The notes under the pieces are model-generated. The model was given only the letters and a program-made list of their open reading frames with translations, was not told the origin of the DNA and did not search any database. DNA of 64,000 bases, taken from positions 224 to 64,223 of the forward strand of contig JANRLG010000160.1 of NCBI GenBank assembly GCA_033762835.1. The letters run 5' to 3'. Each line of letters begins with the position of its first letter. Within the stretch, counting starts at the first letter, position 1. The position numbers and the translations under genes are program-made. Shown here one piece after another: positions 3,489 to 51,858 of this stretch. This DNA is from Thermoanaerobaculia bacterium. Lineage in GTDB: Bacteria; Acidobacteriota; Thermoanaerobaculia; Multivoradales; DATKCC01.

Positions 3489-3512
3489 CGCCGGAGGATA
3501 ACAAACCCCCCG

Positions 3513-4214: not shown

Positions 4215-4287
4215 GGGAGAACTTTACTCGGGGCCCGGCCGTCTCGGGTGGGTGGTGTCTACCACGCGCTGCTAGACTGCCCTCGCC

Positions 4288-36302: not shown

Positions 36303-37388
36303 TCAGGCGCTGTCCCGGCTCCACAGCCGGAAGCTGCGGGCACCGAGGGCGAGGCAGGCGACGAACCAGGCCAAGAGCGCCAGGATCTCCGTGCCGTGGT
36401 CGGTGAGAGGGGCGCCGTAGCGCACGGTGCCGCGAAAGGCGTCGACCAGATAGGTCAACGGCAGGGCGCGCGACAGCCACTCGAGCGGCGCCGGCATGCT
36501 GTCGACCTTGAAGAAGACGCCGCACAAAAACGACATCGGCAGGCTGAACATCTGCAGGAACAGGCTCGCCGATTCGAGCGTGGGGGCGACCATGGCGACC
36601 GCGATGCCGAGGGCCATGAAGGCCAGCGTGCCGAGCAACACGAGCAGGGTGAGGTCGAGCCAGGAGCCGAGGATCTGGGCGCCGAAGCCGAACACGGCCA
36701 CCGCCACCAGTACCAGCAGGTGCAGCACCACGATCAGGAAGCGGCCGGTCAAAACGCTCGAGAAGATCGTCAGCCCGGACACCGGGGTCAGTCGCAACCG
36801 GCGCAACACGCCGATTTCCCGTGCTTCGAGCAGCACGACCCCGCTCGCCAGGCAGACCTGCATGATCGCCATCGCCAGGATGCCCGGGAAGATGAAGTCG
36901 ATGTAGCGGTTCTTGACCACCGAGAGCTGGGCCACAGACTCCGTCCAGGGCGGCGTGCGCGCGCCCCCGGTGGCGACCACCAGGGCGCTCAGGCGCTCGA
37001 ATCCGAGATCGAGCCACTTGTTGGCATCGTCGTCACGCACCAGGCGCAGCTGATCCGGTGTCGCCGCGGGCGTCCAGCCGGGGGCCAGCACGAGGCCGCC
37101 GATGACCTTGGCCTCGCGGATGCGGGTGAGGATCTCTTCCTCACTGCCGACGGACTCGACGACCAGGAACTCGTCGCCGTCGAGCCGGGCGAGCAGCGCC
37201 GCCGAGTCCGGCGTCTGGGCACGGTCCCACACCGCCACCGGCAGCTCGACCTTGAATTGCTCTTCGCCCATGACGAGGCCGAAGAGCACCATCATGAAGA
37301 CGATCAGGAACAGCGACAGGGCCACGGTCAGCGGGTCCCGCAGGTACATCTTGAGGACCGCCAGGGACAACTTCCAAAACGCTTTCAC
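36303..37388 (-). CDS. ABC-2 type transporter permease
   Basis: Six transmembrane helices and a periplasmic loop. A GTG start overlaps the upstream ATPase stop as GTGA. Confidence 0.8.
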   Translation of the reverse strand: MKAFWKLSLAVLKMYLRDPLTVALSLFLIVFMMVLFGLVMGEEQFKVELPVAVWDRAQTPDSAALLARLDGDEFLVVESVGSEEEILTRIREAKVIGGLVLAPGWTPAATPDQLRLVRDDDANKWLDLGFERLSALVVATGGARTPPWTESVAQLSVVKNRYIDFIFPGILAMAIMQVCLASGVVLLEAREIGVLRRLRLTPVSGLTIFSSVLTGRFLIVVLHLLVLVAVAVFGFGAQILGSWLDLTLLVLLGTLAFMALGIAVAMVAPTLESASLFLQMFSLPMSFLCGVFFKVDSMPAPLEWLSRALPLTYLVDAFRGTVRYGAPLTDHGTEILALLAWFVACLALGARSFRLWSRDSA

Positions 37389-38368
37389 GACGCACTCCCG
37401 GCCGGTTCGGCGATGGTGACGGGCGCCCGCTCGGAGGCCCCCGCGTAGGTCAGGAAGACGTCCTCGAGGGTGGCCGCGCGGGTCTCCAGTTCGTCGAGGC
37501 CGATGCCCTGGCGCTCGGCCCAGCCGATCAGGGCGCCGAGGCCCTCGCGCAGGCTGGGCACGATCACCTGGAAGCCGCCCTCGTCCGCGGCGCGGGCGTC
37601 CAGGCACCAGGGTTCGGCGGCGAGGCCGGCGAGCTCGAAGGGCTGGAGGGTGGTGAAACGCACCGAAACGTGAGGGTTCTTGGCCCGGATCAGTTCGTTG
37701 GGCGAGCCCAACTCGACCACCCGTCCGCGGTGCAGGATCGCCACGCGGTCCGACAGAGCATGGGCTTCGTCCATGTAGTGGGTGGTCAGGATCACCGTCT
37801 TGCCGCGGGCGCGCAGCCGGCGAATGACGTCCCACAGCCGGCGGCGGGCCTGGGGATCGAGCCCGATGGTGGGCTCGTCGAGCAGGACCAGATCGGGATC
37901 GTTGACCAGGGCCAGCGCCAACACGACGCGTTGGTACTGCCCGCCGGAGAGGCTCTTCATGGGCGCCCGGAGCTTCTCGTGGAGGTCGAAGAGTTCGACC
38001 AACTCGGCTACCGGCAAGGTCTTCGGGTAAAAGCTGCGGAACAGGTCGAGAGTTTCCTCGACCGTCAGCTGGCCCCAGTAACGGGACTTCTGGAGCGACA
38101 CGCCGAGCCGGGCGCGGATGGCGTCGAGGTGCTGGGCCGGGTCGAGGCCGAAGACCCGGACGCTGCCCGAGTCGGCTTGGCGCAGGCCCTCGACGATCTC
38201 GAGAGTGGTCGTCTTGCCGGCGCCGTTCGGTCCCAGCAGGCCGAAGATCTCTCCGGCCTGGACGGTCAGGCTGACGTCGTCGACTGCGCGGTGGCTACCG
38301 TAGGTCTTGACCAGATGGCGGATCTCGAGCACGGTCTCGCCGCGCGGAGAGGCAGGGGCGTTGATCAT
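37385..38368 (-). CDS. ABC transporter ATP-binding protein
   Basis: It has Walker A GPNGAGKTT, the signature LSGGQ, and Walker B LLDEPT. ATG 38368 has ATGA overlap with the upstream stop. Confidence 0.9.
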   Translation of the reverse strand: MINAPASPRGETVLEIRHLVKTYGSHRAVDDVSLTVQAGEIFGLLGPNGAGKTTTLEIVEGLRQADSGSVRVFGLDPAQHLDAIRARLGVSLQKSRYWGQLTVEETLDLFRSFYPKTLPVAELVELFDLHEKLRAPMKSLSGGQYQRVVLALALVNDPDLVLLDEPTIGLDPQARRRLWDVIRRLRARGKTVILTTHYMDEAHALSDRVAILHRGRVVELGSPNELIRAKNPHVSVRFTTLQPFELAGLAAEPWCLDARAADEGGFQVIVPSLREGLGALIGWAERQGIGLDELETRAATLEDVFLTYAGASERAPVTIAEPAGSAS

Positions 38369-40437
38369 TCTCGATCCTCGGTCGGGGGCCGGCCGTGGCC
38401 GTGGGCGCGCAGGATGGCGTCGATCTCGGCGACGCCCTGGGTTTCGTGAACGGCGATTTCGTCGAGCAGACGCTGGGGTCCGGGGTCTGGGGCGTAGAGG
38501 CCCGCGGTCGGGTCGAGCACGGCGGCGTCGAGTAACTCCGCCACCTCGCGCCAAGCCTCGGCCAGGCGGCGGTAGCGGTCGGCCACCGGCAGCAGCTCGG
38601 GCCAGTCGAGCTCGCGGGCGGCTTCGCGCAGGAAGCGCTGGTACAGGTTGCGGAAGTTGCCGCCGCCGGTGCCCGCCTTCTCGAACATGAAGGCCGTCAG
38701 CTCGGTGTTGAGCCGCAGTTCTTCCCCCTTCAAGATGCGCCCCCAGCGCGCCGCCTGGCGGCAGAAGCGCTCGATCGCGGGCAGCCCGTTCAGATTCAGG
38801 AACGGGTGGCGCATTTGGGAGACGAAGGTACGCAGCGCCAGCGGCAGTGCCTCCGTGAGCGGCACCAGCTGGTCCGGGAACCCGAAGGTGAAGCAGGCGT
38901 TGCGCGGCGGCTCGGGGCACTCGCGGCTGTCGCGGGCGCGCGCCAACACCGCCGCCGGCAGCACCTGGGCCTCGGCCCAGGCGTAGTCCCACACGGTGTA
39001 GCTGGCGCTCGCGGCGTCCCAGCCCGTTACCAGGAGCTTGTGGCCCCCGAAGTGGACGCCGTCCATCAGCCGCAGGGCCTGGACCATGTAGGGCAGGTAG
39101 AACATGTCGGTGTCCACCACCGCCAGCCGGCCGGCGCCGACGACACTCGCGAGATGCGCCTCGGCGGCCCGCGGGTCGTCCGAGTGGAAGATCTCGAGAC
39201 GAATGCCGAGCGTGTCGCAAAACGTCTCTTCCATGTAGGAGCCGCGCCCCATGGTCAGGAAGAACGGCGAACCCGGCGGCCGCAGGTAGGTGAAGTTGAG
39301 CCCCGCGGCGAGGCCGAAACACAGGCTTTCGGTCCACTTGCCGCCGGTCGCGTGGGTGGCGACGTTGCGCAGGGCCATGGTGCCGCAGTGCACGCCGCGG
39401 ACGTGGCGATAGTCCGCGAGCCGCGGCTCGGGTCTGGGCACCGAGACCTGGGCCGGGGCGCGCCCGAGAAACTCGCGGGTGCGGGCCAGGCTGGCACGCT
39501 CCAGCCGCTCGAGGGTGGCCAAGCGTTCCACCGCGGCGCCGGCGTCGAGGCGACCCGCCGCGGCGTCGGCGCTCAGCTTGCGCCACAACTCGGCCGCCGT
39601 CGCCAGGGCCGAGGCGGCTTCTTCGAGCCGGCCGCTCGGCCACTCTTCGGCCGCGAGGCGCAGGAACTCGGCCTGGGTGTCGCGGTAGAACGCCGCGCCG
39701 CCGTCCAACGCCGCGCGCCCGAGCCCGCGCACCAGGCCGGCGAGCTCGCCGCGCTCGCACGCCGCGCGCACGGCCCCGAAGGCCGCGAGGCCGGTCACCC
39801 CCCAGGCGGGCACCGAACCCGCCATCGCCTGCACCCAGCGCTCGAGCCCCAGGCGGAGGGCCAGGGACGGCTCGTAGCGCAGCCGCGCGACCGGGTGCTC
39901 GAACAGATGGGCGGCGCGGGGGAATCCGCCCACCGGCCGGTACAGGGCCGCCACGAGCCGCTCGGGGGCGACCCGCAGGGGCGCCGGTTCGCGCGGGTCA
40001 CGCACCTCCCACCAGGCCCCCGCGGGGTCCCGGCCGACGACGAGCGCCGCCGTGTCCGCGGGGTCGTCGGGCTGCTCGGGCGATCGGCCGGCCAGCACCT
40101 CGCGATCGAGTTCGACCAGAGTCCACTCGTCGCGCGCGGCCCGTTCGGCCAGCAGGTCGAGAGCGTTGTCCGACACCAGGCGCGACCGGAAGCCCCAGAC
40201 GTCGACGCCGAACAGCAGGCGCAGCAGGCGATTCGGATGGAGCCCGCGCAGGATCGGCGTCGCCCCGGTGGTGTCCCATTGCAGGAAGAGCGCGGCACCG
40301 GCCCCGAACAGAAACGTCTCGGAGGGCACCGGCAAACCCGGCAGCGCCAGGCGCTCCAGGGCCAGGCGCACGGCGGCACTGGTCGACAAGGAGCCCCCGA
40401 CCGGCGTCGTGGGCGTGGGCGCGACCGCCGCGGTCAC
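38365..40437 (-). CDS. two-domain protein whose C-terminal half is BtrH_N/DUF4872-like (ACP-dependent acyltransferase-like)
   Basis: The C-terminal half has YRHVRGVHCGTMALRNV...ESLCFGLAAGLNFTY. This is the BtrH N-terminal domain signature, a Cys-containing, peptidase-C39-like fold. A GTG start at 40437 overlaps the thioesterase stop. Confidence 0.55.
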   Translation of the reverse strand: MTAAVAPTPTTPVGGSLSTSAAVRLALERLALPGLPVPSETFLFGAGAALFLQWDTTGATPILRGLHPNRLLRLLFGVDVWGFRSRLVSDNALDLLAERAARDEWTLVELDREVLAGRSPEQPDDPADTAALVVGRDPAGAWWEVRDPREPAPLRVAPERLVAALYRPVGGFPRAAHLFEHPVARLRYEPSLALRLGLERWVQAMAGSVPAWGVTGLAAFGAVRAACERGELAGLVRGLGRAALDGGAAFYRDTQAEFLRLAAEEWPSGRLEEAASALATAAELWRKLSADAAAGRLDAGAAVERLATLERLERASLARTREFLGRAPAQVSVPRPEPRLADYRHVRGVHCGTMALRNVATHATGGKWTESLCFGLAAGLNFTYLRPPGSPFFLTMGRGSYMEETFCDTLGIRLEIFHSDDPRAAEAHLASVVGAGRLAVVDTDMFYLPYMVQALRLMDGVHFGGHKLLVTGWDAASASYTVWDYAWAEAQVLPAAVLARARDSRECPEPPRNACFTFGFPDQLVPLTEALPLALRTFVSQMRHPFLNLNGLPAIERFCRQAARWGRILKGEELRLNTELTAFMFEKAGTGGGNFRNLYQRFLREAARELDWPELLPVADRYRRLAEAWREVAELLDAAVLDPTAGLYAPDPGPQRLLDEIAVHETQGVAEIDAILRAHGHGRPPTEDRE

Positions 40438-40946
40438 GTCGTCACCTCCACGGGCTCCAGTTTGCCGGCCGGCAGACGCACCCAACCCGGCCAACGGCGC
40501 ACGGCTTGTTCAAAGGCGTCGCGCACCAAGGGCGGCGTCCACAGCAGCAAGCGGTTGTCGCGATCGAGGAAGCAGTGGGTGGTCGAGCCGCTGACGCACA
40601 GCTCGCCCGGGGCGTCGGGGTCTTCGGGGCGCTCGCGGTAGAGGCCGTAGTGAACGGTGAAGGCCGCCTTCTTGTGCAGTTCGAGCTGGGCGTAGCCGGT
40701 GACCTTGTCGTCGAAGCGCACTCCGCGCCGGAACTCCATGGCGCAGGCCGTCAAGGGCAGGGCCAGCCCGGCCGCCTTCAAGTCACCGAAGGTCAGCCCG
40801 AAAATCACCTCGAGGGCGTGGAATCGCACCAGCTCGAACCAGTGCAGATAGGCCGCGTGGTGGACGACCTGCATCATGTCGACATCGGCGAAGCGGACGG
40901 TGATCGGCGTCGCCGAGAGCGGGAAGCAGCCCGCGGGAGTCTTCAC
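40434..40946 (-). CDS. hotdog-fold acyl-CoA/ACP thioesterase (4HBT/YbgC-like)
   Basis: It has ITVRFADVDMMQVVHHAAYLHWFE (4HBT motif). A GTG start at 40946 has a GGGAGGG Shine-Dalgarno motif. 170 aa. Confidence 0.75.
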   Translation of the reverse strand: MKTPAGCFPLSATPITVRFADVDMMQVVHHAAYLHWFELVRFHALEVIFGLTFGDLKAAGLALPLTACAMEFRRGVRFDDKVTGYAQLELHKKAAFTVHYGLYRERPEDPDAPGELCVSGSTTHCFLDRDNRLLLWTPPLVRDAFEQAVRRWPGWVRLPAGKLEPVEVTT

Positions 40947-42088
40947 GGCAGCCCTCCCACGGTCACCAGCGGCTCCGTGGCCGGCGCCGCGAGGAACGCC
41001 TCGAGGGTCGCGAGCCCTTCGTGCTCGAGCCGCCGGAGCTTCGCCAGCAGCTCGGCGATCCGCTCGGCGCGGAAGCTCCAGGGCGCCGGAGTGCTCGCGA
41101 CTTGCCCGTGCAGGAGGGCCACCAGCTCGGACCACGCCTCGGCGGCATCGGCATAGATTTCCGCCGCCGCGAGTAGGCTCGGGGCGCCGATTTCGCGGCC
41201 GGCGTGGCGCAGGAACATGCCGAAGCTGCGCCGGCCGAGGGCGCCGCCGACCATGAACTCGGAGTTGAGCCACATCATCGAAACGGTGGCGAAGAGCTTC
41301 TCGGGCGGCAGATCGGGCCGCTCCCCCCAGCCGGGCAGCTCGGCGCAGAAGCGATCGAGCGCGGCGATGCCCCCTTCGCCGTGGTCGAGGGCCGGGCAGC
41401 GTTGGTTCCACACCACCTTGGTCAGAGCCGTGCGCACCAGGCTCGCGAAGGGCGGCACCTGGCGCGGCGGATGAAACACCGCCCAGCGGTTGAGCGACTT
41501 CATGGCGTAGCCGGCTTGGTCGTCGCCCAGGGTCCGCAGCTCGTAGAACACCTCGAAGGGCAGCTCGATCGGCTCGTAGCGGTCGGTTTCGAAAAGCGTC
41601 ACCACGCGCCGGCGACGGTCGACATCCACGACGATCACCCAATGGCCGCCGAAACCCACCCCGGCGGGGAACCAGTCGCCCCAGGCTGGCCCCCCGAGGT
41701 ACTCCGCCAACGCCTTGCGCGACAGTGCACAGAGCACCGGCAGGCCGGCCGCGAGGTAGGGCTCGAGACTGGCGAGAGCCTCTTCGGGACCCTGTTTTTG
41801 GTCCTGCACGAGCACGGCGTTGAACAGGTAGGCCAGGTTCTCGAGCACCTCGAGGCGCTGGCCCGAAACCGGCCAGAACAGGTGGGCGAAGTCTCCTTCC
41901 GGAAAGAGCAGACGGGCGCGCTCGGAGTCCTCGGTGCGGTAGACGAAGAAGAAGCTCGAGGCGAGGCCCTGGACGACGGCGTAGCTGTGGCGGTGGCCGT
42001 AGAACTCGAGCAGGTTGCGAGCGCAGGTCACGCGGCAGTCGTGGCCCTTGCGGTGGTGGCGGCCGTACCGTTCGACGAGGTTCGTCAC
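40943..42088 (-). CDS. BtrH_N/DUF4872-like protein (ACP:acceptor acyltransferase-like)
   Basis: The sequence YGRHHRKGHDCRVTCARNLLEFYGHRHSYAVVQGLASSFFFVY is a BtrH_N signature. A GTG start at 42088 overlaps the upstream stop as GTGA. Confidence 0.6.
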   Translation of the reverse strand: MTNLVERYGRHHRKGHDCRVTCARNLLEFYGHRHSYAVVQGLASSFFFVYRTEDSERARLLFPEGDFAHLFWPVSGQRLEVLENLAYLFNAVLVQDQKQGPEEALASLEPYLAAGLPVLCALSRKALAEYLGGPAWGDWFPAGVGFGGHWVIVVDVDRRRRVVTLFETDRYEPIELPFEVFYELRTLGDDQAGYAMKSLNRWAVFHPPRQVPPFASLVRTALTKVVWNQRCPALDHGEGGIAALDRFCAELPGWGERPDLPPEKLFATVSMMWLNSEFMVGGALGRRSFGMFLRHAGREIGAPSLLAAAEIYADAAEAWSELVALLHGQVASTPAPWSFRAERIAELLAKLRRLEHEGLATLEAFLAAPATEPLVTVGGLP

Positions 42089-43824
42089 GGCGTCACCTCG
42101 CGCGGCGGCAGCAGGTGGAAACACTCGGCGAAGCCGCTTTCCGCTCCCAACGCCCGGCCGCGTGACTCGGCCAGGAAGGTCATGATGCGGGCGTAATCCA
42201 TGAGCCGCGTCTGGGTGCGGTAGACCTTGATCGCGGCCAGCTTCTTCTGCCAGAAGGCGGCGGAGGTGGCGAGTCCGTGGGTGGGTTGGCAGTTGCCCCA
42301 AATTTCCCAGCCCAGCAACCGCGCCGTCGAGCCACTGGCGGCGTGGGCCGCGAGCACCCAGTCGTGGGCGGAACGATGGTCGGGGTGGAACTCGCCCGCC
42401 GCCGGGTAGGTGATCACGTCCGGCCGCTCCTCGCGAATCACCCGTGCGAGGGCGCCGGGGGAGGCGATCGCCTCCTCGAGTTTGCGCTCGGGGAAGTTCA
42501 GGTAGGTGCGCTCCTGAATGCCCAGAATGCGCGCCGCCGAGGCGCTTTCCTCGCGCCGCTCGAGACAGGTCATGCCGAGCTCCTCGCGGCTGTGTTTGCC
42601 CGAGGCGCCGTCGGTCAGGAACACCACCGAGACGTGGCCACCGCCCGCCCGGCAATGTTGAATGAGCCCGCCGCAGCCGATCACCTCGTCATCCATGTGC
42701 GGGGCCACGACCAAGAGGCGCAGACCGGCGAGGCTCGGTCGGCCGAGCTCGGCAGCGAGGTCCAACGGTGGCAGGCGGGACAGATCACTGCCGTCGTCGA
42801 GGGCGCGGGCGAGCTTCTTCAGCACGAATTCGACGCGGAACTTCTGGGCCGGGTCGTAGGCCGGCTCGGGCGGCGCCGTGACCTCGTGACCGAGTTGCTT
42901 GTCGCGATAGCTGACCATGCCGAAGGGCGAGAAGACGAGGTCGAGATCCTCGATCCCGGGCATACCGCGCCGTTCCGCCACGCGGTTGTTGAACTCGCGG
43001 AACGGCAGGGCGCCGCAGAGGAACTTGACGAACAACATCAGCTCCTCCTCGCGGCCGTATTTCTCGTAGAAGTACCGCAGCGAGCGGGTGCTCTCGCGGA
43101 ACAACGTGCCGCGGGCGTGGCCGTGGTCGAGATGGAAGTACCGCGCGCCCGGTGCCCGGGCGAAGCCGACGCCGGCCCGGGTTAGACGCAGGCCGAACTC
43201 GAAATCCTCCATACCGTAGGAGCGGATCTCGCCGTCGTAGCCGCCGACCTTCTCCCACAACGCCTTCGGAAACGTCACGCTGCACCCCTGGGCGGCCACC
43301 CAGGGCACGGCGAAGCGGTCGATGCCCGAACCCAGCATGCGCCGGATCAGCTCCTCGAGGGCGTACTCGCGGTCGTCCGGCGCGAAGTCCGGCAGCCGCT
43401 CGAAAACGTCGCGCTCGCCCCGCTCGACCGCCTGGAGCACGTCCGGCACCGCCGCCACCACGACGTGGGGGATGGCCGACAGCAGCAGCCGGTCGGGCAG
43501 CAGCGTGTGGGCATCCCACAGCCGCGACACCGTTTCGGGGTGCATCAAGCAGTCGTCGTCGAGCATGACCAGGAGTTCCCCGTGTGCCGCCTCGCAACCG
43601 GAGTTGCGCGCCGCGGCGACGCCCCCCTGGGGCCGGTGGACGGCCCGGAAGGTGTAGGGCGGCGCGAACTGGTCGAGAAACTCGGCGGTCTCGCGGGTCG
43701 AGCCGTCGTTGACCACCACCACCTCGAAGCGGTCGCGGGGAAAATCCAGCCACTCGAGCCCGCGGAGCACGGCCCGCAGGTGCGACAACTTGTCGTGGGT
43801 GATGACGACGATCGAGACGTCCAT
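42085..43824 (-). CDS. bifunctional glycosyltransferase family 2 / PIG-L (LmbE-like) N-deacetylase
   Basis: The N-terminus has VSIVVITHDK...VVVVNDGS...LDDDC, the GT2 motifs. The C-terminus has LLVVAPHMDDEVIGCGG...HPDHR, the PIG-L deacetylase motifs. Confidence 0.8.
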   Translation of the reverse strand: MDVSIVVITHDKLSHLRAVLRGLEWLDFPRDRFEVVVVNDGSTRETAEFLDQFAPPYTFRAVHRPQGGVAAARNSGCEAAHGELLVMLDDDCLMHPETVSRLWDAHTLLPDRLLLSAIPHVVVAAVPDVLQAVERGERDVFERLPDFAPDDREYALEELIRRMLGSGIDRFAVPWVAAQGCSVTFPKALWEKVGGYDGEIRSYGMEDFEFGLRLTRAGVGFARAPGARYFHLDHGHARGTLFRESTRSLRYFYEKYGREEELMLFVKFLCGALPFREFNNRVAERRGMPGIEDLDLVFSPFGMVSYRDKQLGHEVTAPPEPAYDPAQKFRVEFVLKKLARALDDGSDLSRLPPLDLAAELGRPSLAGLRLLVVAPHMDDEVIGCGGLIQHCRAGGGHVSVVFLTDGASGKHSREELGMTCLERREESASAARILGIQERTYLNFPERKLEEAIASPGALARVIREERPDVITYPAAGEFHPDHRSAHDWVLAAHAASGSTARLLGWEIWGNCQPTHGLATSAAFWQKKLAAIKVYRTQTRLMDYARIMTFLAESRGRALGAESGFAECFHLLPPREVTP

Positions 43825-43840: not shown

Positions 43841-45088
43841 TCAGGCGGTCGCCTCCCGCGCTTCGTCCGGCTGGCGGAAGATCAGGCAGGCCGAATTGCC
43901 GCCGAAGCCGAAGGAATGGGACGACGCCACCTCGAGCTCCGGGGCGGGCCGGCCGGTGGGCACGAAGTCGTACTCGTAACCGACCTCGGGCGTCGTCCAG
44001 TTGGGCGTCGGCGGCAAGAAGCGGTGATGGAGGGCGAGCACGGTGGCGATCGCTTCGATCGTGCCGGCCGCCCCCAGGGTGTGGCCGATGGCCGACTTGA
44101 TCGACGACACCGGGACCCGCCGGGCAAGCTCGCCGTAGACCCGCGAGATCGCTTTCAACTCCATGGCGTCGTTGTGCCGGGTGGCGGTGCCGTGGGCGTT
44201 GACGTAGTCCATGTCCTCGGCCGCCACCCCGGCGTCGACGAAGGCGCGCTGGACCGCGCGGTAGGCGCCGCCGGCCTGGGGGTCCGGCTGGGTCGGGTGG
44301 AAAGCGTCGTTGGACAAGCCGTACCCCGCCAGCTCGGCGTAGATTCGCGCCCCGCGGGCCTCGGCGTGCTCCCAACGCTCGAGGATCAAGGTGCCGGCGC
44401 CTTCGCCGATGATCAGCCCGTCGCGGTTCTTGTCGAACGGCCGGCTGGTGTCGCGGGTCAGCGCCATCAGGATGTTGAAGCCGGCGAAGGCGAGCATGCT
44501 GAAGGGCTCGGTGCCGTTCGTGATCACCACCTCGGCGCGCCCGTTGCGCAGCAGATCGGCCGCGATGGCCAGCGCGTTCGAACCCGCCGAACACGCCGTG
44601 ACCACGGTGAAGTGGCCGCCGCGGACGTCACAGGCGCGCGCCAGGTAGGCTCCCAGCTGGCAGGGCGGAATCTGCAGCACATGGTCGTAGAGCGCGTCCG
44701 GGCCGTCGCCGTTGGCACAGCCCGGGTGCCGCCGCATGTTGTTCTCGTGCTCGAGCATGCCGCCGAGCGACGAGGCCACCGACACCGCGGTGCGATACCG
44801 CAGCTCCGGCGTGATCTCGAGTTTGGCGTCGGCCAGGGCCTCGCGGGTGGCGGCGAGCGCGATCCGGCTGGCGCGGTCGAAGGCGTCGGCCGCGTCCAGC
44901 CCCTCGTAGGCCGCCTCGTCGATCAGGCAGGCGCGGTCGGTCCGGTAGTCACTGGGATCGAAGGTCTCGATCGGCTTCAAGCCCGAGGCCCCGGCGAACA
45001 AATGGCGCCGGAACTCCTCGACGTTCTTGCCGATCGAGGTGCAGATCCCGAGACCGGTGACCGCGATGCGGGGGCGCGGCGCGGCCAT
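43841..45088 (-). CDS. fabF: beta-ketoacyl-ACP synthase (KAS I/II-like)
   Basis: The active-site Cys is in VVTACSAGSNA. Both His residues are present, in NAHGTATRHND and SIKSAIGHTLGAAG. 415 aa. Confidence 0.9.
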   Translation of the reverse strand: MAAPRPRIAVTGLGICTSIGKNVEEFRRHLFAGASGLKPIETFDPSDYRTDRACLIDEAAYEGLDAADAFDRASRIALAATREALADAKLEITPELRYRTAVSVASSLGGMLEHENNMRRHPGCANGDGPDALYDHVLQIPPCQLGAYLARACDVRGGHFTVVTACSAGSNALAIAADLLRNGRAEVVITNGTEPFSMLAFAGFNILMALTRDTSRPFDKNRDGLIIGEGAGTLILERWEHAEARGARIYAELAGYGLSNDAFHPTQPDPQAGGAYRAVQRAFVDAGVAAEDMDYVNAHGTATRHNDAMELKAISRVYGELARRVPVSSIKSAIGHTLGAAGTIEAIATVLALHHRFLPPTPNWTTPEVGYEYDFVPTGRPAPELEVASSHSFGFGGNSACLIFRQPDEAREATA

Positions 45089-45090
45089 GA

Positions 45091-45357
45091 TCAGGCCACC
45101 CGCTGGGCGAGCCAGGACTCGATGAAGCCGTCCAAGGTGTTGACGTTGTGGAACACCGACATGTCCGACTCTTGGATCTCGACGTCGAACTCCTCGTAGA
45201 TGCCGACCACGAGGTCCAGGGCATCGATGGAGTCGAGGCCGAGGCTGCCTTCGCCGTCGCCGAACAACGCTTGTTCGTCGCCGATCTCGCTCGCGGCGAT
45301 CTTCAGGTTCATGCGGTCGACGACGATTTCCTTCAAACGGGCCTTGCGCTCAGACAT
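45091..45357 (-). CDS. acpP: acyl carrier protein
   Basis: An 88-aa protein with a GLDSIDALDL phosphopantetheine-attachment motif. The start ATG 45357 was verified. Confidence 0.85.
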   Translation of the reverse strand: MSERKARLKEIVVDRMNLKIAASEIGDEQALFGDGEGSLGLDSIDALDLVVGIYEEFDVEIQESDMSVFHNVNTLDGFIESWLAQRVA

Positions 45358-46078
45358 GGACGATCTCCTCTTGGGGTACGGAGTGGGGTGGGGTTTCCCG
45401 GGTCGAGTCGCCGACGATCCGGCCATCCTTCAGGCGGACGGTGCGGTGGGCGAGGGCGACCATCTCCGGGTCGTGACTCGAATAGACGAAGGTGATGCGG
45501 CGCTCGCTGTGGAGCCGGCGGGCGAGCTCGAGTACCAGCCGCCCGCTTTCGGAATCGAGGTTGGCCGTGGGCTCGTCGGCGATCACCACCCGCGGCTCGG
45601 TGACGAGCGCGCGGGCGATCGCCACCCGCTGCTTCTGACCGCCCGACATCTGATTCGGGCGGTGGTCGGCGAGCTCGGCGATGTCCAGGGCGGCGAGTTG
45701 GTCGAGCACGCGACGGCGGCGCTCGGCGGCACCCTGGCGGGTGAGCAGCAGCGGCAGCTCGACGTTCTCGAAGGCCGAAAGCACCGGCAGCAGGTTGAAG
45801 CCCTGGAAGACGAAGCCGAAGTGCTCGTGACGCAGCCGCGCGGCGGCGGTGGGATCGAGGCGGGAGACGTCCCGGCCGGCGAAGGACACGCTGCCCTCCG
45901 AGGGCGGCAGCAGGCAGGCCATGAGGTTGAACAGCGTCGTCTTGCCCGAGCCGGAAGGGCCGGAGAAGGCGACGAAGTCCCCCTCGGCAATCGCCAGCGA
46001 GACGTCGCGCACCGCCCACACGGGCCCAGCGCCCAAATCGAAACGGCGCGACACACCTTGGAGCTCGATCAGGGCCAT
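45350..46078 (-). CDS. ABC transporter ATP-binding protein (LolD/MacB-type)
   Basis: It has Walker A GPSGSGKTTL, the signature MSGGQKQR, and Walker B IADEPT. A perfect AGGAGG lies 4 nt upstream of the ATG. The start coordinate is set by frame. Confidence 0.9.
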   Translation of the reverse strand: MALIELQGVSRRFDLGAGPVWAVRDVSLAIAEGDFVAFSGPSGSGKTTLFNLMACLLPPSEGSVSFAGRDVSRLDPTAAARLRHEHFGFVFQGFNLLPVLSAFENVELPLLLTRQGAAERRRRVLDQLAALDIAELADHRPNQMSGGQKQRVAIARALVTEPRVVIADEPTANLDSESGRLVLELARRLHSERRITFVYSSHDPEMVALAHRTVRLKDGRIVGDSTRETPPHSVPQEEIVHV

Positions 46079-46086
46079 CGTTCCTC

Positions 46087-47229
46087 CTAGAAGCTCCAGC
46101 GCAGGCGCAGTTGGTAGATCCGCCGGTCCAGGCGTCCCGGGCCGTCGAAAGCGAGCACCACCGCCGTCCACTGGAAGTCGGGCAGCGGGTGGGCTTCGAG
46201 CCGCAGCTGGAGGGTGCGGGTGTCCGACGCGGCGTCGTAGAACAGGTTCGCCGCGAGCGTGCCGTCGAGTTCGAAGAGCCGCTTCGAAACCCCGAGGAAG
46301 GTGCGGTCTCGGCCGCGGCCCAACGGGTCGAACAGGTCGGCGTTTTCGGCCAGGTTCGCCCGCAAGCGGCGGCTGTCGGCGGCCGAGTCGCCCTCGGCGT
46401 CGTGGTAGTGCTCGAGGACCACGAGCACGTCCGCGGGCAAAGTGACGTTGCCGCCCAGCACCCAGCTCAGGTAGGAGCCGGCGCCGCGCTCCCGGCGCCC
46501 GCCGTCCATCGCGACGAATTCCCGCGGACTGCGCCGCCGGTAGAGCGCCTCGCCGACCCAGGCGACCGGGCCGAGCACTCCGGTGGCTTCGAGGCCGAAA
46601 CGGTGGTCGGCGCCTTCGCCGAGCACCGTCGACAGGGCGAGGCCGACGTCTCCTGCCGACGAGGCCCCGCGCAGCGCCCACAGGGCCGCGCGCTCGCCGG
46701 TTCGTTCCGGCAGGTGGATCGCCGCCAGGTTCCCGCGGTCGCCGTAGAGGCGAACCTCGGCGAGCTCTTCCCCTTCGAGCGCGGTGTCCGAGAACAGCAG
46801 GTCCTTCTGCTGTTCGATCGTGCGCACCGGGTTCCACACCGTGGCCGCGCCCCAGCCGATGCCGGCCTTGCCGGCGCGCAGGAAGAGCTTGCGGTCGGCC
46901 CGGGTCCAGCCGGCCCAACCTTGGTACACCCGGCCGCTGCTGCCGCCTTCCTCGAAGGCCGCGGAACCGAACAACTCGGCGAAGAGCCGCCAGCCGCCGT
47001 TCTGGTAGTCGAGGGCGAGGTCCGCCCGGGCCAGGGCGCGGTGGGCATCCACCCCGGGGCCGAGCCTCTCGGCGACCGGCGAGTCGGCCAAATCCCGACC
47101 CTCGGCGAAGAGCTCGACATAGCCGCGCGTCGAGAGCTCCGCGGGAGCGCGCTCGATTCCACCCGCCGGGGCGGCCGGGGCCATCGCGGCACTCCAATGC
47201 AGCAGGCTGGTGACCAGGAGCAGCATCAT
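46087..47229 (-). CDS. hypothetical secreted/outer-membrane protein (possible beta-barrel, C-terminal Phe)
   Basis: The start MMLLLVTSLLHWSAAMA is a signal peptide. Its ATG overlaps the upstream stop as ATGA. The protein ends ...YQLRLRWSF, an aromatic C-terminus typical of outer-membrane barrels. Confidence 0.5.
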   Translation of the reverse strand: MMLLLVTSLLHWSAAMAPAAPAGGIERAPAELSTRGYVELFAEGRDLADSPVAERLGPGVDAHRALARADLALDYQNGGWRLFAELFGSAAFEEGGSSGRVYQGWAGWTRADRKLFLRAGKAGIGWGAATVWNPVRTIEQQKDLLFSDTALEGEELAEVRLYGDRGNLAAIHLPERTGERAALWALRGASSAGDVGLALSTVLGEGADHRFGLEATGVLGPVAWVGEALYRRRSPREFVAMDGGRRERGAGSYLSWVLGGNVTLPADVLVVLEHYHDAEGDSAADSRRLRANLAENADLFDPLGRGRDRTFLGVSKRLFELDGTLAANLFYDAASDTRTLQLRLEAHPLPDFQWTAVVLAFDGPGRLDRRIYQLRLRWSF

Positions 47230-48035
47230 CGTTGATCCAGGCTGTCGCCCTGGAACAGCGACAGGGGCAAGTTGCGACCGGTCAGCAGCTCGGAGACCAA
47301 GAGCACCGTGCGCTCCTTGCGACCGACGTCCGGGGTCACGGTGACGCGGGCGAGGTAGCGAACGCCGGTCGCCGTGCTCTTGGGCTCGGCGTACTCGAGG
47401 GTCTTGATGCGTTTGCCCGAGCGGGTGAAGAACTCTTGGCGCAGGGGCGCGGCATCGTCCTCGGCGAGCCACAGGAGCACCCGCGGGTAGGCCGCCTGGG
47501 AGCCCTTGCCGGTCAACTCGAGGCGAAGAGCGGCGCGGCCGGCCAAGGTTTCGCGGCCGAGCACGACGGCCGTGTAGTCCTCGGTCAAGTCGGTGCGCAG
47601 TAGGTCGGCGTTCGAAAAACCCGAGCCCAGGAAGCTCTGGCGCGCCGACAACACGATCGGGCGGCCGAGATCCGGCAGATACATCCACATCTTGTCGCCG
47701 ACGCGCAGGATCTTGCGGTCACGCTCCCGGGCGGGCTCCAGGAACTCGATGCGCAGGCGCGAGCTGTCCTTCTTGAGCAGCCGCATGCCGTACCGTCGGG
47801 CCGGCGTGGTCCCGGTCTCGACGTCCATGGTCATGCGGGTTTCCGAGTCGGGAAAATTCAGCCAGGCGGTGGCGCGGGCGAGCAGCGCCGCGGCGTCCGG
47901 CGTGACCACCGGCGCGGCACCGTCGCTCGCCCCGGCCTGGGTAGCGGCCGGCCCTGTGCCGGCCGTGGCCGGAGGAGTGCCCAGGCTGCCGACCACGACG
48001 AGCAGGGCGACGAAGAGGCGACGGTCGATCACCAT
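47226..48035 (-). CDS. LolA-like outer-membrane lipoprotein-sorting/carrier protein
   Basis: A signal peptide, MVIDRRLFVALLVVVGSLG. It is ~270 aa. It sits between the FtsX permeases and the outer-membrane-barrel-like gene, as in LolA-like genes of polyene/lipid export clusters. The GGGAGG Shine-Dalgarno motif was verified. Confidence 0.5.
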   Translation of the reverse strand: MVIDRRLFVALLVVVGSLGTPPATAGTGPAATQAGASDGAAPVVTPDAAALLARATAWLNFPDSETRMTMDVETGTTPARRYGMRLLKKDSSRLRIEFLEPARERDRKILRVGDKMWMYLPDLGRPIVLSARQSFLGSGFSNADLLRTDLTEDYTAVVLGRETLAGRAALRLELTGKGSQAAYPRVLLWLAEDDAAPLRQEFFTRSGKRIKTLEYAEPKSTATGVRYLARVTVTPDVGRKERTVLLVSELLTGRNLPLSLFQGDSLDQR

Positions 48036-49246
48036 GGCGTTCCTCCCGGATCCTGGGCTTTGGCGCGCACGGCGTTCCAAGCCGGGCCGAGGGCCCCGGC
48101 GAGACTCGTGCCGATGCCCGCCGCGGCGATCGCGGCCACTTGGTAGGGCGCCAGCGCGGTGCTCAGCCGGCCGGTGCCGAAGGCGTTCTTGGCCAAGCCC
48201 TCGAGGGCGATGCCGGTGCTGCCGAAGCTCACGTGCACGGCGAGGGTGGCTAGGAGCGCCGCCGCCGTGGCCACGACGGCCACCAGCCCCGCCTCGGCGA
48301 GCACCAGGAGCACGATGCGCCGGGGCGGAAACCCGAGGGCGAGCAGCGTCGACAACTCGCGCCGGCGCTCGCGCACGGACAACGCCAGGAGCAAGGCCAG
48401 GCCGAGGCCGGCCACGGCGTAGAGCAAGACGGCGAAGCTCGCGAAGGTCCAGCGCAGCGCGGTCACGATGCCGAGCAGGAAACCGGCACCGGCCTGAAAG
48501 TCCGTCACCGTCACCGGCAGCCCGGCGAGGCGCCGGTTCACCTCCGCGGCGAGAGCCGGCGCCGCCGCGAGGTCGGCGACGTCGAGCAAGGTGCGGTTGG
48601 CGAACTCCGCCCCGAACAGCTCCGTGGCCGGAGCGCGAGTCAAGTAAGCGTTGTAGTCGATCCACGGCGCGACGTCTTCGAAGATCCCCACGAGCTCGAG
48701 GTCGAGGGCGTTGATCTCGGCGCCCCAGGTGGTCGCGAGCACGGTCACGGTGTCGCCGACCTCGAGCTGGAGCCGCCCCGCGACGGCCTGGGAGAGCACC
48801 AACCCGGCCGCGTCCGTGGTCACCAGGAAGCGCCCCGCGCGCGGCCGCAAGGTCGCCGCGAGGGCCGGCTCCGTGTCCGGCTCGAGGGCGACGAAACGCA
48901 GCTGTTGGGAGATGCCGCCGAGGCTCATGGCCACGGCGTCGAACTCCAGGCGCCGGCGCACGCCGTCGCTCGCCAGACCCTCCAGGCGCGCCCGCACCGT
49001 CTGGTCGAGGGCCGCCGCGGCCGCCGGGTCGGACGGTGCCGGCCCCGCCGGACCGCCGGGGCTCACGGCCACGGCACCGGTCTCGAGGGTCACGAGATCG
49101 CGGGTGATCGAACGGGTCAGGCCGTCGGCCACGGCCAAGGCGAGGTGCAGGCACAACCCGGCCAGGAACAGCGTCGTGCCGAGCAGCGCCGTGCGCCGCC
49201 GGTTGCGGCCGAGGTTGCGCGCCGCCAGGCGCAGCAAGCCGTTCAT
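48029..49246 (-). CDS. FtsX-family ABC permease (LolC/E/MacB-like)
   Basis: The start MNGLLRLAARNLGRNRRRTALLGTT has a GGGAGG Shine-Dalgarno motif. It has a large periplasmic domain and C-terminal transmembrane helices with the FtsX pattern. Confidence 0.8.
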   Translation of the reverse strand: MNGLLRLAARNLGRNRRRTALLGTTLFLAGLCLHLALAVADGLTRSITRDLVTLETGAVAVSPGGPAGPAPSDPAAAAALDQTVRARLEGLASDGVRRRLEFDAVAMSLGGISQQLRFVALEPDTEPALAATLRPRAGRFLVTTDAAGLVLSQAVAGRLQLEVGDTVTVLATTWGAEINALDLELVGIFEDVAPWIDYNAYLTRAPATELFGAEFANRTLLDVADLAAAPALAAEVNRRLAGLPVTVTDFQAGAGFLLGIVTALRWTFASFAVLLYAVAGLGLALLLALSVRERRRELSTLLALGFPPRRIVLLVLAEAGLVAVVATAAALLATLAVHVSFGSTGIALEGLAKNAFGTGRLSTALAPYQVAAIAAAGIGTSLAGALGPAWNAVRAKAQDPGGTPW

Positions 49247-50493
49247 GGACTTTGCCTCCCGAGCACTTCCGGGGCGTCCAGATGGGCCGCGCGCCACGCC
49301 GGACCGGCGGCCGCGAGCACCCCGAGAACGACGGAGGCGGCGAGCAGCAGGCCGACGGTTTGCAGCTCGAGCCGCGGGTAGAGCCGCGGACCGGCGAAGA
49401 CGTACAGCAGCGCCTCGGTGAAGGCGGGAATGCCGACTTTGCCGAGCCACAGGGACACGCCGCCGCCGACCAGAAGACCGGCGAGGCTCGACAGTCCGGC
49501 GAGCAGGACTCCCTCGCCCACGATCGTGCCGAGCACGTCCCGGGTGCCGAAACCCAGGGCGCGCATGACCGCGATCTCGCCCTCGCGCTCGAGCACGTAG
49601 AGGCCGAGGGTGCTCGCCACGAGTACCACGGCGAGCAGCGCCAGGATCAAGCCCATGACCAGGCGGAACAGATCGCCGATGCGCAGGATGTTCTGGAACA
49701 GCCGGCCGCTGTCGCGCCAGGTGGTCAGGCGCATTCCGGTGCCGAGCTGCGGCCCGAGGGCGGCGGTGACGGTGTCGAGCTGGTCTGGTGTCTCGAGGGT
49801 GGCGACGATCTCGTGGACGGCGTCAGGCTCGAGGCCGAGCAGGTGCCGGACCTTCTCGATCGGCACGTAGGCCAGCGAGGAGTAGAAGCGGCCGATGCCG
49901 CGGTCGTCCGTGAGGCCGACGATCTCGAGCTCCACGGCGCCGAAGGAGCCGTCCACGGTCGAGGCCAAAAAGGCGATGTCGTCGCCGAGAGCGAGCTTCT
50001 TGTCGCGCGCCAGGCTCTCGCCGATCACCACCTCGGCGGCGCCGGGAGCGACGAACCGGCCACTGGCCAGGTGCAGCCCGGTGGCCACGGTGAGCTCGCG
50101 CTCGGCCGCGACGCCGAGCAGGAAGGCGCCCCAGGTTTCGTCGCGAACCGAGCCCAGGGCTCCGGCGCGGACCCGCGGGGTCACGGCGGCGATCCCGGGT
50201 TGGGCGGCCAGCAACTCGAGGAGCCGTGCGGGCTCGGGCAGGGGCGCGAAGCCGTCGGCATCGGCCGCGGCGACGTCGCGCCCGGCGTCGCTGGCGGTGA
50301 GCTGGACGTGACCGGTGACCGTCCGGACCATAGCGTCTTCGAACGCCCGGCGTTGCCCGGCCCCTTGGGCCAGCTGAAACACCAGCGCGGCGTTGGCGAG
50401 CGCTACGATGCTCCCGACGAGCAAGGTCCGCGACCGGAACCGCCAGGCATTACGCAGGGCCAGCACGCCCAGGCGGGCCACGGTCAGAGCCAC
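49243..50493 (-). CDS. FtsX-family ABC permease (second copy)
   Basis: A GTG start, MALTVARLGVLALRNAWRFRSRTLL. It has the same topology as the downstream paralog. It is the first gene of the operon. Confidence 0.8.
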   Translation of the reverse strand: MALTVARLGVLALRNAWRFRSRTLLVGSIVALANAALVFQLAQGAGQRRAFEDAMVRTVTGHVQLTASDAGRDVAAADADGFAPLPEPARLLELLAAQPGIAAVTPRVRAGALGSVRDETWGAFLLGVAAERELTVATGLHLASGRFVAPGAAEVVIGESLARDKKLALGDDIAFLASTVDGSFGAVELEIVGLTDDRGIGRFYSSLAYVPIEKVRHLLGLEPDAVHEIVATLETPDQLDTVTAALGPQLGTGMRLTTWRDSGRLFQNILRIGDLFRLVMGLILALLAVVLVASTLGLYVLEREGEIAVMRALGFGTRDVLGTIVGEGVLLAGLSSLAGLLVGGGVSLWLGKVGIPAFTEALLYVFAGPRLYPRLELQTVGLLLAASVVLGVLAAAGPAWRAAHLDAPEVLGRQSP

Positions 50494-50886: not shown

Positions 50887-51858
50887 TCAGCGAGCGCTCG
50901 CCGCGATCAGCTCCACGAGATCCCGATTGGGTGCCGACTCTCCGGTGGCGAAAGCCGGTTCGAGCTTGAGGAGCAACTGCCGTCCCGCGGCGCGAAGCTC
51001 GGGGCTTTGACCGTAGAGCATCGCGGCCGCGGCACCGATGGCCCAGGCGCGTGGCTCGAGAGCCGAGGCCTCGGGAACCTGAGGGAGCCGGTCGTCGAGC
51101 GCGAGGCCGTTCGCGAGGGCCACGACGACCAACGCCGACTGTTCGACTCCGTGGGCGGCAGTTAGCCGTTCGCGTAGCACCGCAGCGCGCTCCGGCGAGC
51201 GGACGCTCGCGAGTGCACGAAAGGCGGCGAGGGTGACGAACGGGTTCGGTGACGTGAGCAGGCGTTCGAGGCGCGCCGCGTTCTGGGGCTCGGCCGGCTG
51301 CGCGAACACCACGGCATCCTTGAGCAGGGCGGCGCGCGCACCCGCGAGGTCTCCTTGCCACGGTTTCGGGATCAGGAAGAGCGAGGCCAACTGGTCCGCC
51401 GATTCGAGCCTTCCCGTTTCGGCTCCGGGCTTGGTCTTGACGCGGGCGACGACCGACCCGCCACCCCGAAGCGGGGAGAACGCGGCCGCGTCTTCCCCGC
51501 GCGGATAGAGATGCTCGAACGGCCAACGGTAGGTCAGGGACCGCAACGCGGTGCGTCCCGAGAGGACTTGGAGCACCTCGGCACGACCTTCGACCGTCGC
51601 TTCGGCGCCCACCTCGCCCGTCGTCGTCACCGTTCCGCTGCCGACCACGACGCCGACCAGCCGCACCCGCCCGCTCGCGGGAGCGGGCTCGATGGCGAGG
51701 ACCACCCAGGCCTCCTCGTCGCTCGTGGCGTCGAGACCCAGGAGATTCAGCGTGGCCAAGTCGTGCCCCAGCCGCGCCTCCGCAAACAAGTCGGACTCGA
51801 CGGCCGCCGAAGGCAGCGACAGCAGCGACCAGGCGAGGACGGCGGCGAGGTGGCGCAT
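50887..51858 (-). CDS. secreted hypothetical protein, helical-repeat (HEAT-like) C-terminus
   Basis: A signal peptide, MRHLAAVLAWSLLSLPSAAV. It has a TGATG overlap with the upstream gene. Confidence 0.5.
   Translation of the reverse strand: MRHLAAVLAWSLLSLPSAAVESDLFAEARLGHDLATLNLLGLDATSDEEAWVVLAIEPAPASGRVRLVGVVVGSGTVTTTGEVGAEATVEGRAEVLQVLSGRTALRSLTYRWPFEHLYPRGEDAAAFSPLRGGGSVVARVKTKPGAETGRLESADQLASLFLIPKPWQGDLAGARAALLKDAVVFAQPAEPQNAARLERLLTSPNPFVTLAAFRALASVRSPERAAVLRERLTAAHGVEQSALVVVALANGLALDDRLPQVPEASALEPRAWAIGAAAAMLYGQSPELRAAGRQLLLKLEPAFATGESAPNRDLVELIAASAR

Follow-up and report, generated by a model that had tools for sequence, protein, structure and literature searches.

A triad-less BtrH-fold module coupled, and in one lineage fused, to a triad-bearing papain-fold transacylase module in a predicted glycolipid operon of Acidobacteriota

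Introduction

Why should a protein of the BtrH_N type be of double length? The question is raised by a 64,000-nucleotide stretch of DNA from a Thermoanaerobaculia bacterium (Acidobacteriota; contig JANRLG010000160.1 of assembly GCA_033762835.1; the whole stretch is termed the window), in which two genes for BtrH_N-type proteins, A (381 residues; 40943-42088) and B (690 residues; 38365-40437), flank that for a hotdog thioesterase (TE; 170 residues; 40434-40946), all three being on the minus strand. The Pfam assignments and the open reading frames (ORFs) agree with a first-pass annotation of the locus in this regard. The same annotation proposed that the additional N-terminal half of B, of ~340 residues, is a degenerate internal duplication forming a pseudo-dimer, and that two BtrH-type copies around a thioesterase serve successive acyl transfers or proofreading.

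BtrH, the founder of Pfam family BtrH_N, is an acyl carrier protein (ACP):aminoglycoside acyltransferase (PMC10318531). The suggested rarity of BtrH-like enzymes beyond aminoglycoside pathways is contradicted by relatives including CtaG (closthioamide), CcbD/LmbD (lincosamides), AsbE, MllDE, and the product of a dialkylresorcinol-cluster gene (PMC7183216, PMC12865890, PMC12945683, PMC3949708); NCBIfam also has a DarH model. CcbD/LmbD act through a Cys-His-Glu ping-pong mechanism in the carrier-protein-dependent N-acylation of an amino sugar, and in the CcbD dimer each neighbouring protomer supplies Arg263' and Asp264', which complete the sugar pocket (PMC12945683). For CtaG an acyl-Cys intermediate, formed from a donor bound to a peptidyl carrier protein (PCP), has been demonstrated (PMC7183216, PMC12865890).

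Here we describe evidence that the operon encodes not two, as first annotated, but three paralogues of the papain-fold two-domain (BtrH_N plus helical DUF4872) transacylase, one of which, the N-terminal half of B, has lost the catalytic triad. We consider it probable that the region provides the core acyl-transfer functions of a glycolipid operon, type II fatty-acid/polyketide-like and conserved in Acidobacteriota, in which A and the C-terminal half of B would acylate, with the dead module acting as a partner.

Results

Gene layout and the active modules

The window has ~69% G+C, and its 29.4-50.5 kb region is a long series of minus-strand genes in which 4-base start/stop overlaps are frequent. 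A, TE, and B are coupled via GTGA start/stop overlaps, with A starting at a GTG (42088) that overlaps the stop of the upstream gene and B at a GTG (40437) that overlaps the TE stop; the B stop in turn overlaps the ATG of an ABC ATPase gene (ATGA). The B protein is 100% identical to a 690-residue NCBI protein from a Thermoanaerobaculia metagenome-assembled genome (MAG), named 'DUF4872 domain-containing protein'. From ORF, Pfam, NCBIfam, and AlphaFold analyses, it comprises a predicted dead BtrH-fold module (the N-half; residues 1-337; 39427-40437) fused to an active BtrH_N plus DUF4872 module (the C-half; residues 346-690; 38368-39402). TE, which is YbgC/FadM-like, matches 4HBT_2 (1.5e-14) and 4HBT (1.9e-8) in Pfam and, under the cut-off, TIGR00051 in NCBIfam (6e-12); it sits between A and the pseudo module in all related loci.

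Both A and B exceed the Pfam thresholds for BtrH_N (PF14399; cut-off 29.7 bits) and DUF4872 (PF16169; cut-off 28 bits). A scores 34.9 bits (2.1e-8) with the former and 43.9 bits (2.8e-11) with the latter, the corresponding values for the C-half of B being 100.8 bits (8.9e-29; residues 350-484; 38986-39390) and 124.4 bits (5.4e-36; residues 498-644; 38506-38946). The motif HC(G/R)T...FGLxxGLxF(T/V)Y, which had been assigned to both proteins, is literal in B (HCGT at 350-353, FGLAAGLNFTY at 374-384), but only approximate in A, where it takes the form H-D-C-R-V-T at residues 16-21 and QGLASSFFFVY at 40-50.

As judged from the alignments, A and the C-half of B retain a Cys-His-Asp/Glu triad, i.e. 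Cys18 (42035-42037), His149 (41642-41644), and Glu167 (41588-41590) in A, and Cys351 (39385-39387), His466 (39040-39042), and Asp484 (38986-38988) in B. Nine A-type and B-type orthologues all have the Cys and, within a GGH motif, the His; the third triad residue, which follows ~18 residues after the GGH His, is Asp in the B-type and Glu in the A-type proteins. Across 39 sequences His466 and Asp484 are invariant and Cys351 is at least 90% conserved; all three residues are present in 10 of 10 active-module rows of the column table. By sequence, triad, and fold, A and the C-half of B are of the BtrH/CcbD/CtaG kind.

An Arg-rich motif, RFCRQxxRW (38695-38775; B residues 555-581), is invariant in the active family, with R212, F213, R215, Q216, R219, and W220 being its invariant columns in the active-family alignment A5; the dead module lacks it. 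The motif may be a carrier-protein docking surface, and any equivalence to the CcbD helix bearing Arg312/316/324 would be speculative.

The N-terminal half of B

By itself the N-half has no BtrH_N match in Pfam and reaches DUF4872 with E 0.0078 (16.4 bits, under the cut-off), and BLASTP of the N-half against the C-half gives one weak segment, at an equal relative position in both. The relationship becomes clear from profile comparisons. With four full-length homologues, hhalign aligns the two halves over their whole length (probability 95.5%), and comparison of the pseudo family, i.e. the N-half and its orthologues (20 sequences), with the active family (five sequences) gives a probability of 99.8% and E 1.7e-28 over 319 columns. 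Since 21 controls made from the active-family columns (20 shuffles and one reversal) gave E 0.011 or worse, composition bias was rejected as the source of the similarity. The pseudo-family HMM matches active proteins end to end (~70 bits), and MAFFT aligned stand-alone pseudo proteins onto the C-half of B. Because the profile comparisons align full length, the N-half is a diverged copy of the entire BtrH_N plus DUF4872 unit, in agreement with the first-pass proposal that it is a degenerate copy of the C-half.

The N-half profile, when run against 1.84 billion representative proteins, yielded only 25, which are mostly stand-alone, of 310-366 residues, and cover the full N-half; a word-indexed protein search returned at least four proteins with B as the query and at least one with the pseudo-family alignment. 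The N-half keeps the fold and several motifs of the helical domain, but has lost the triad. The Cys351 column is occupied by Ser18 (40384-40386) and the His466 column by Thr129 (40051-40053). In the pseudo family the nucleophile column has Ser in 21 of 25 members and Cys in none, and the His column has mostly Tyr or Phe, with Thr129 in the window protein and His in 0 of 25; Asp484 has no acidic counterpart, its column being aligned by hhalign with a mostly-Pro column. The Cys/His dyad, for which a check in both halves of B had been suggested, is present in the C-half, as it is in A; the N-half has Ser and Thr instead. On this sequence evidence the N-half is a predicted pseudoenzyme as regards Cys-His chemistry, homologous to, but not itself, an enzyme of the BtrH/CcbD/CtaG type.

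The members of the pseudo family are only 20-35% identical, yet F44, G45, M205, G216, R252, F258, W285, and E313 are invariant. The Arg, Phe, Trp, and Glu of the helical domain are common to both families (R596, F602, W629, and E665 of B), while a near-invariant His67-Pro-x-Arg motif is the pseudo family's own.

Predicted structure of B

An AlphaFold model of B was made with an alignment of 29 sequences, the register of which had been verified, an earlier four-sequence alignment having given a pLDDT of 58; the in-register set was chosen since MAFFT runs with many active-only rows misplaced the stand-alone pseudo proteins or split them between the halves. The model has a pLDDT of 85 and a pTM of 0.56. 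The helices and strands of the two halves come in the same order, with six long helices after them, and B is thus predicted to have the bipartite fold, i.e. a papain-like α/β domain plus a helical bundle. Ser18 and Cys351 are each positioned at the start of the first helix of their own half; the strand that holds His466 in the C-half has an equivalent in the N-half that holds Thr129. The inter-module linker (approximately residues 329-345; 39403-39453), which is variable or gapped among fused homologues, is disordered in the model (pLDDT <50 at 329-341 and 343-345).

Foldseek searches of the Protein Data Bank (PDB) with the whole B model gave the AziU2-U3 complex (E 3e-9), CtaG (1e-7), and CcbD (4e-5), with probability 1.00, as well as phytochelatin synthase and C39-like domains. 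At the sequence level, no solved structure was detected in a PDB search with B or with the active-family profile A5. The pseudo-family profile A3 weakly detects AziU3/Azi29 (PDB 8gs1_B, 7wuw_C; E ~5e-4 over ~230 residues), and it may be that the Cys-less branch is the closer to the AziU proteins.

Gene order and fusion in relatives

In split relatives the N-half is a separate gene, encoding ~310-350 residues, directly upstream of the active gene. The A-type gene comes first, then the genes for the thioesterase, the pseudo protein, the active protein, and the ABC ATPase, with the pseudo and active genes overlapping by a few bases. Among split loci for which downstream sequence is available, the active gene comes immediately after the pseudo gene in 8 of 8, and the A-type and TE genes precede the pseudo gene in all nine whose sequence extends upstream. 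The third BtrH-fold copy is thus a separate gene in most relatives, translationally coupled to the active gene downstream, and the linker of B lies at the position of the stop/start junction of the split forms.

Fused forms (682-694 residues) fall into six 90%-identity clusters, compared with ~27 split orthologues. In a neighbour-joining tree of the active module the six fused forms constitute one clade nested among split forms, hence a single fusion. Two of the fused forms carry taxon labels, i.e. Thermoanaerobaculia and Thermoanaerobaculaceae. B is therefore a lineage-specific fusion of two genes in one Thermoanaerobaculia clade, rather than the product of a duplication within the 690-residue gene, as had been supposed; the reading of B as a pseudo-dimer nonetheless remains reasonable.

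The extended order ACP, ketosynthase (KS), family 2 glycosyltransferase (GT2), PIG-L, A, TE, pseudo, active, ABC ATPase, ABC-2 permease is present in nine loci, i.e. L002, L003, L005, L006, L007, L009, L010, L011, and the window. FabZ and a KS-like gene follow in six of the eight relative loci, with a short-chain dehydrogenase/reductase gene too in four; the L002 and L005 sequences stop inside the permease gene. The first-pass suggestion of an association with GT2/PIG-L fusions is borne out, the pair being directly upstream in all nine loci long enough to show it. GT2 and PIG-L form one 579-residue protein in the window, L003, L005, L009, and L010, and two genes in L002 (3510-5350); this is a second gene fusion in the operon family. 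The pseudo/active family is rare, with three loci in 185,579 species genomes and three in a metagenome scan that used a narrow pseudo alignment. L008 (Thermodesulfobacteriota), one of the three genome-scan loci, was set aside, as it has a distant BtrH-like gene only and none of the operon.

The surrounding operon

All the genes of this section are on the minus strand. Directly upstream of A, the 579-residue fusion protein (42085-43824) combines a Glycos_transf_2 domain (Pfam 5.8e-21; residues 4-107) with a de-N-acetylase domain of the PIG-L (LmbE/MshB/BshB) type (Pfam 8.4e-27; residues 371-493). In NCBIfam the PIG-L part is nearest to BshB1 (2.5e-22), Mca, and MshB, all under cut-offs; Mca and MshB belong to the PIG-L family. 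Then come a FabF-like KS (415 residues; 43841-45088; ketoacyl-synt N and C domains in Pfam, fabF 3.6e-112) and a dedicated ACP of ~88 residues with an LGLDSID motif (45091-45357; PP-binding 7.5e-6; NCBIfam ACP models ~1e-9, under cut-offs). In L005 a NusG-family gene and an extra GT2 gene (3456-4887) lie directly upstream of the ACP gene; the former may encode a dedicated antitermination factor for the operon. Export genes (45350-50493, approximate limits) follow, encoding an ABC ATPase, a protein without a family match, a LolA-like protein, and two MacB/FtsX-type permeases (Pfam ABC_tran 2.5e-33, LolA_like 1e-36, MacB_PCD, FtsX). The gene without a family match, between those for the ABC ATPase and the LolA-like protein, spans 46087 to ~47250, and further upstream there is a 1015-residue protein with no Pfam match (51858-54905).

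Downstream of B are genes for an ABC-2 exporter (36303-38368; ABC_tran, ABC2_membrane), with the ATPase at 37385-38368 and the permease at 36303 to ~37415; its NCBIfam matches are DrrA (1.1e-70), NodI (1.2e-59), and DrrB (4.5e-21), each under cut-off. Family scans identify FabZ (35859-36287) and a FabG-like reductase (33184-33930), for which the FlxB match (2.7e-61; score 207) is under the cut-off of 340. Between these lie a KS-like gene (34789 to ~35870) and a gene with no Pfam or NCBIfam match (33927 to ~34775). Alignment of the KS-like protein (34789-35901 in this comparison) with the operon KS reveals TACSAG replaced by TV--SG, HGTAT by TAANG, and GHTLG by GETLG, so that the Cys and both His residues are gone; the gene is, as judged from this alignment, a chain-length-factor-like dead partner of the KS. 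The operon would therefore have two pairs of an enzyme and a dead paralogue.

Beyond the reductase are two CrtI-family FAD desaturase-like genes (31741-33180 and 29394 to ~30848; Pfam Amino_oxidase/NAD_binding_8; crtI_fam 1.2e-27 and 2.8e-18, under cut-off in NCBIfam), which are separated by a gene without a Pfam or NCBIfam match (30845 to ~31750), whose homologue in L006 (16909-17784) occupies the equivalent position. An 836-residue protein encoded at 26768-29278 has nearly all of its last ~330 residues in Asp/Glu-rich low complexity; the opposite strand yields long Ser- and Arg-rich ORFs, and the AT skew at 26-28 kb is -0.39.

In some relatives one to four ATP-grasp genes are present between the ABC-2 permease and FabZ genes or further downstream (L009, 13083-14321; L010, 13063-14286, 16780-18054, and 19582-21041; L011, gap at ~10040-11300), and there is no ATP-grasp gene in the window operon. 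These genes recall BtrJ and CtaD, which act on carrier-protein-bound substrates. Components of the aryl-polyene/flexirubin type are present in the window operon, including the KS and its inactive partner, dehydratase, FabG-like reductase, thioesterase, and LolA-like protein, with no aryl-starter enzymes found; relatives of the operon carry ApeI/ApeP-like marks.

Discussion

Comparison with characterised systems

CcbD and LmbD (PDB 7YN1, 7YN2, 9DKR, 9DKS) resemble A and B in having a papain-like N-terminal domain, a helical C-terminal domain, and a Cys-His-acid triad. The genomic setting of LmbD is also alike, in that lmbD adjoins lmbE, whose product is a homologue of the mycothiol amidases Mca/MshB (PMC4351081). 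Given the PIG-L affiliation of these amidases, lmbE is a PIG-L family gene. By contrast with the CcbD homodimer, in which both protomers are active, one protomer-equivalent of B is dead and, in this lineage, covalently fused to the other. The five-sequence profile A5 detected no sequence similarity to CcbD, and while CcbD uses a prolyl-PCP donor, the present proteins probably take theirs, a fatty or polyene chain, from the ACP of a type II system.

CtaG (PDB 9QUZ and others; TM 0.69 on target in the Foldseek alignment) likewise shares with B the papain-like and helical domains and the Cys-His-Asp triad, and the ATP-grasp genes of the L009 and L010 relatives add to the likeness. CtaG differs in being a monomer that links two substrates, both bound to carrier proteins; in the window operon a single ACP gene is seen. 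AziU2/AziU3 (azinomycin; PDB 8GS1, 7WUW) provide the best structural match to B (TM 0.64 on target), and AziU3/Azi29 is the only solved relative matched by the pseudo-family sequence profile. These are two proteins of the B fold that were crystallised as a complex, and so provide a precedent for a complex of two paralogues. They are described as aziridine-forming and functionally unrelated to acyl transfer (PMC12865890); unlike them, B has a C-half with a complete Cys-His-Asp triad and a gene context of ACP, KS, and glycosyltransferase.

The best NCBIfam match of B is DarH (1e-33), but membership was rejected, since the score of 116.9 bits is far from the cut-off of 300 (A scores 26 bits) and no DarA/DarB neighbours are present, there being no Pfam or NCBIfam match to these resorcinol enzymes among the ORFs scanned from 29394 to 54905. 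The dialkylresorcinol-flexirubin/arcuflavin clusters do combine KS, ACP, ABC-2 exporter, and BtrH-like genes (PMC3949708), as the window operon does, and its reductase resembles FlxB; GT2/PIG-L genes and a dead paralogue, as found in the window, are not described for them.

The butirosin btr cluster employs, in addition to BtrH, the GlcNAc transferase BtrM and the PIG-L-type deacetylase BtrD. BtrH is a single protein of ~300 residues, unlike B, and we know of no dead partner for it; furthermore, the window has a fatty-acid/polyketide-like operon, without the aminocyclitol genes of the butirosin pathway. In the Nod-factor pathway sugar transfer by a GT2 enzyme (NodC) is followed by de-N-acetylation (NodB), N-acylation using a dedicated ACP/KS pair (NodA, NodF/E), and ABC-2 export (NodI/J). 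The match of the window ATPase to NodI adds to this parallel, but the deacetylase is of the PIG-L rather than the NodB type, and the acyltransferases have the papain fold rather than that of NodA, such that the relationship is one of analogy. The logic of the operon may parallel those of BtrM/BtrD/BtrH, of LmbD with LmbE, and of NodC/NodB/NodA/NodFE/NodIJ.

A model for the operon

In the model that we favour, acyl chains would be built by the KS, the KS-like protein, FabZ, and FabG, the two CrtI-like enzymes might desaturate them, and the GT2/PIG-L protein would make an acceptor with a free glucosamine amine. A and the C-half of B would load acyl chains from the operon ACP onto their own Cys residues and each catalyse one acyl transfer, most likely to the glucosamine amine, or else to a hydroxyl. 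The earlier suggestion of successive transfers or proofreading by two copies around a thioesterase is plausible. The hotdog thioesterase would edit or release acyl-ACP, and the ABC-2 and MacB/LolA-like systems would export the lipid.

The dead module is proposed to be an obligate non-catalytic partner, i.e. in a heterodimer in split relatives and in a covalent pseudo-dimer in the window lineage, where it would act as the second 'protomer' of a dimer with one active site. It may complete a surface for binding the acceptor or the carrier protein, as does the second protomer of the CcbD dimer. Given that the pseudo and active proteins are fused in one lineage, they are predicted to work as a pair, and the overlap of their genes in 8 of 8 split loci, together with the fusion in one clade, argues for a complex of the two paralogues.

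Several considerations weigh against this model. With a pTM of only 0.56, the mutual arrangement of the modelled halves of B is tentative, and the Foldseek matches are those of the model as a whole. Dimerisation is not universal in this fold, CtaG being monomeric (PMC12865890). The respective roles of A and B, the acyl chain, and the acceptor are predictions from gene context alone, all the NCBIfam matches of the context genes fall under curated cut-offs, and the function of the entire operon family is predicted from sequences. Finally, the conserved Ser at the nucleophile position of the dead module and its own His67-Pro-x-Arg motif make another kind of activity possible.

Alternative explanations

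That last point leads to the proposal, which we regard as unlikely, though it survives best of the alternatives, that the N-half has been re-tooled for a different reaction, by its own Ser18, His67, and Arg70, so making B bifunctional, cf. AziU2/U3. The frequency of Ser at the nucleophile column and the near-invariance of His-Pro-x-Arg accord with it, as do the weak match of the pseudo-family profile to AziU3/Azi29 and the position of the AziU2-U3 complex as the top structural match; AziU2/U3 itself is presented as resembling CtaG in structure while being unrelated to it in function (PMC12865890). Against it stand the loss of Ser18 in three of the six fused forms (to Glu, Gly, or Thr) and the absence of a His or acidic residue at the triad positions. 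Moreover, the family scans of the operon genes found no amino-group carrier protein or sulfotransferase, i.e. none of the aziridine-forming context (amino-group carrier protein, sulfation).

A second possibility, to which we give little credence, is that A and/or the C-half of B are hydrolases, either acyl-ACP-cleaving or amide-cleaving in the manner of C39 or papain-like enzymes, that release or trim the product together with TE. The papain-clan fold and a Cys-His-Asp/Glu triad are indeed common to C39 peptidases and phytochelatin synthase (Foldseek; PMC10318531), and the A-type gene of L009 is listed with Peptidase_C39_2. On the other hand, the closest full-length relatives with the extra helical domain, i.e. 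CtaG, CcbD, and BtrH-type enzymes, are transacylases (PMC12865890, PMC12945683), the operon already provides a dedicated thioesterase, between A and B, and there is no leader-peptide or bacteriocin context. A role in C39-type bacteriocin processing was rejected, as neither A nor B has a Peptidase_C39 match in Pfam at E up to 1 and the ABC systems are of the ABC-2 and MacB types; a C39-like domain is a weak structural match to the B model (E 0.34).

It appears very improbable that the N-half is a functionless, decaying remnant carried by chance. It lacks the triad and is evolving faster than the C-half, with identities to the window protein of 71/34/35% for the N-half, the C-half having 81/63% and similar values. 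However, at least 13 loci across 20-35% identity retain it, intact and translationally coupled, as a gene or module, with invariant columns and a confidently predicted fold. That the 690-residue ORF is an assembly or sequencing artefact joining two genes can scarcely be credited, despite the MAG contig source and the overlap by a few bases of the neighbouring genes in relatives, since fused forms of 682-694 residues come from a variety of samples and sources, make up six separate 90%-identity clusters, and form one clade, one of them being on a 5.9-Mb contig.

Implications

With the enzyme/pseudoenzyme model favoured over these alternatives, a more specific and tentative proposal can be made. 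It is possible that the operon family makes an undescribed class of exported N-acyl-glucosamine glycolipids, potentially polyunsaturated, in Acidobacteriota, by a Nod-factor-like logic assembled from unrelated enzymes, in which an obligate pair of papain-fold transacylase paralogues, one an enzyme and one a pseudoenzyme, would perform the key step. Were this so, the pair would be the first of this fold still doing acyl transfer, and would occur in both split and fused states. A literature search found no published work dealing with the operon or with DUF4872, nor any describing a dead partner for a protein of this fold.

Papain-fold, carrier-protein-dependent transacylases such as BtrH, CcbD, and CtaG are an emerging alternative to the condensation domains of nonribosomal peptide synthetases, and few have been characterised. 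As the present locus shows, their fold has also given rise to a non-catalytic paralogue, which is conserved and accompanies an active one. The model is testable with respect to which protomer binds the ACP and which the acceptor, and fused B offers a ready single-chain construct for structural work. For the uncultured Acidobacteriota themselves, the results mark out a conserved, but rare, 13-gene lipid operon, the logic of which suggests that its product may be a surface glycolipid.

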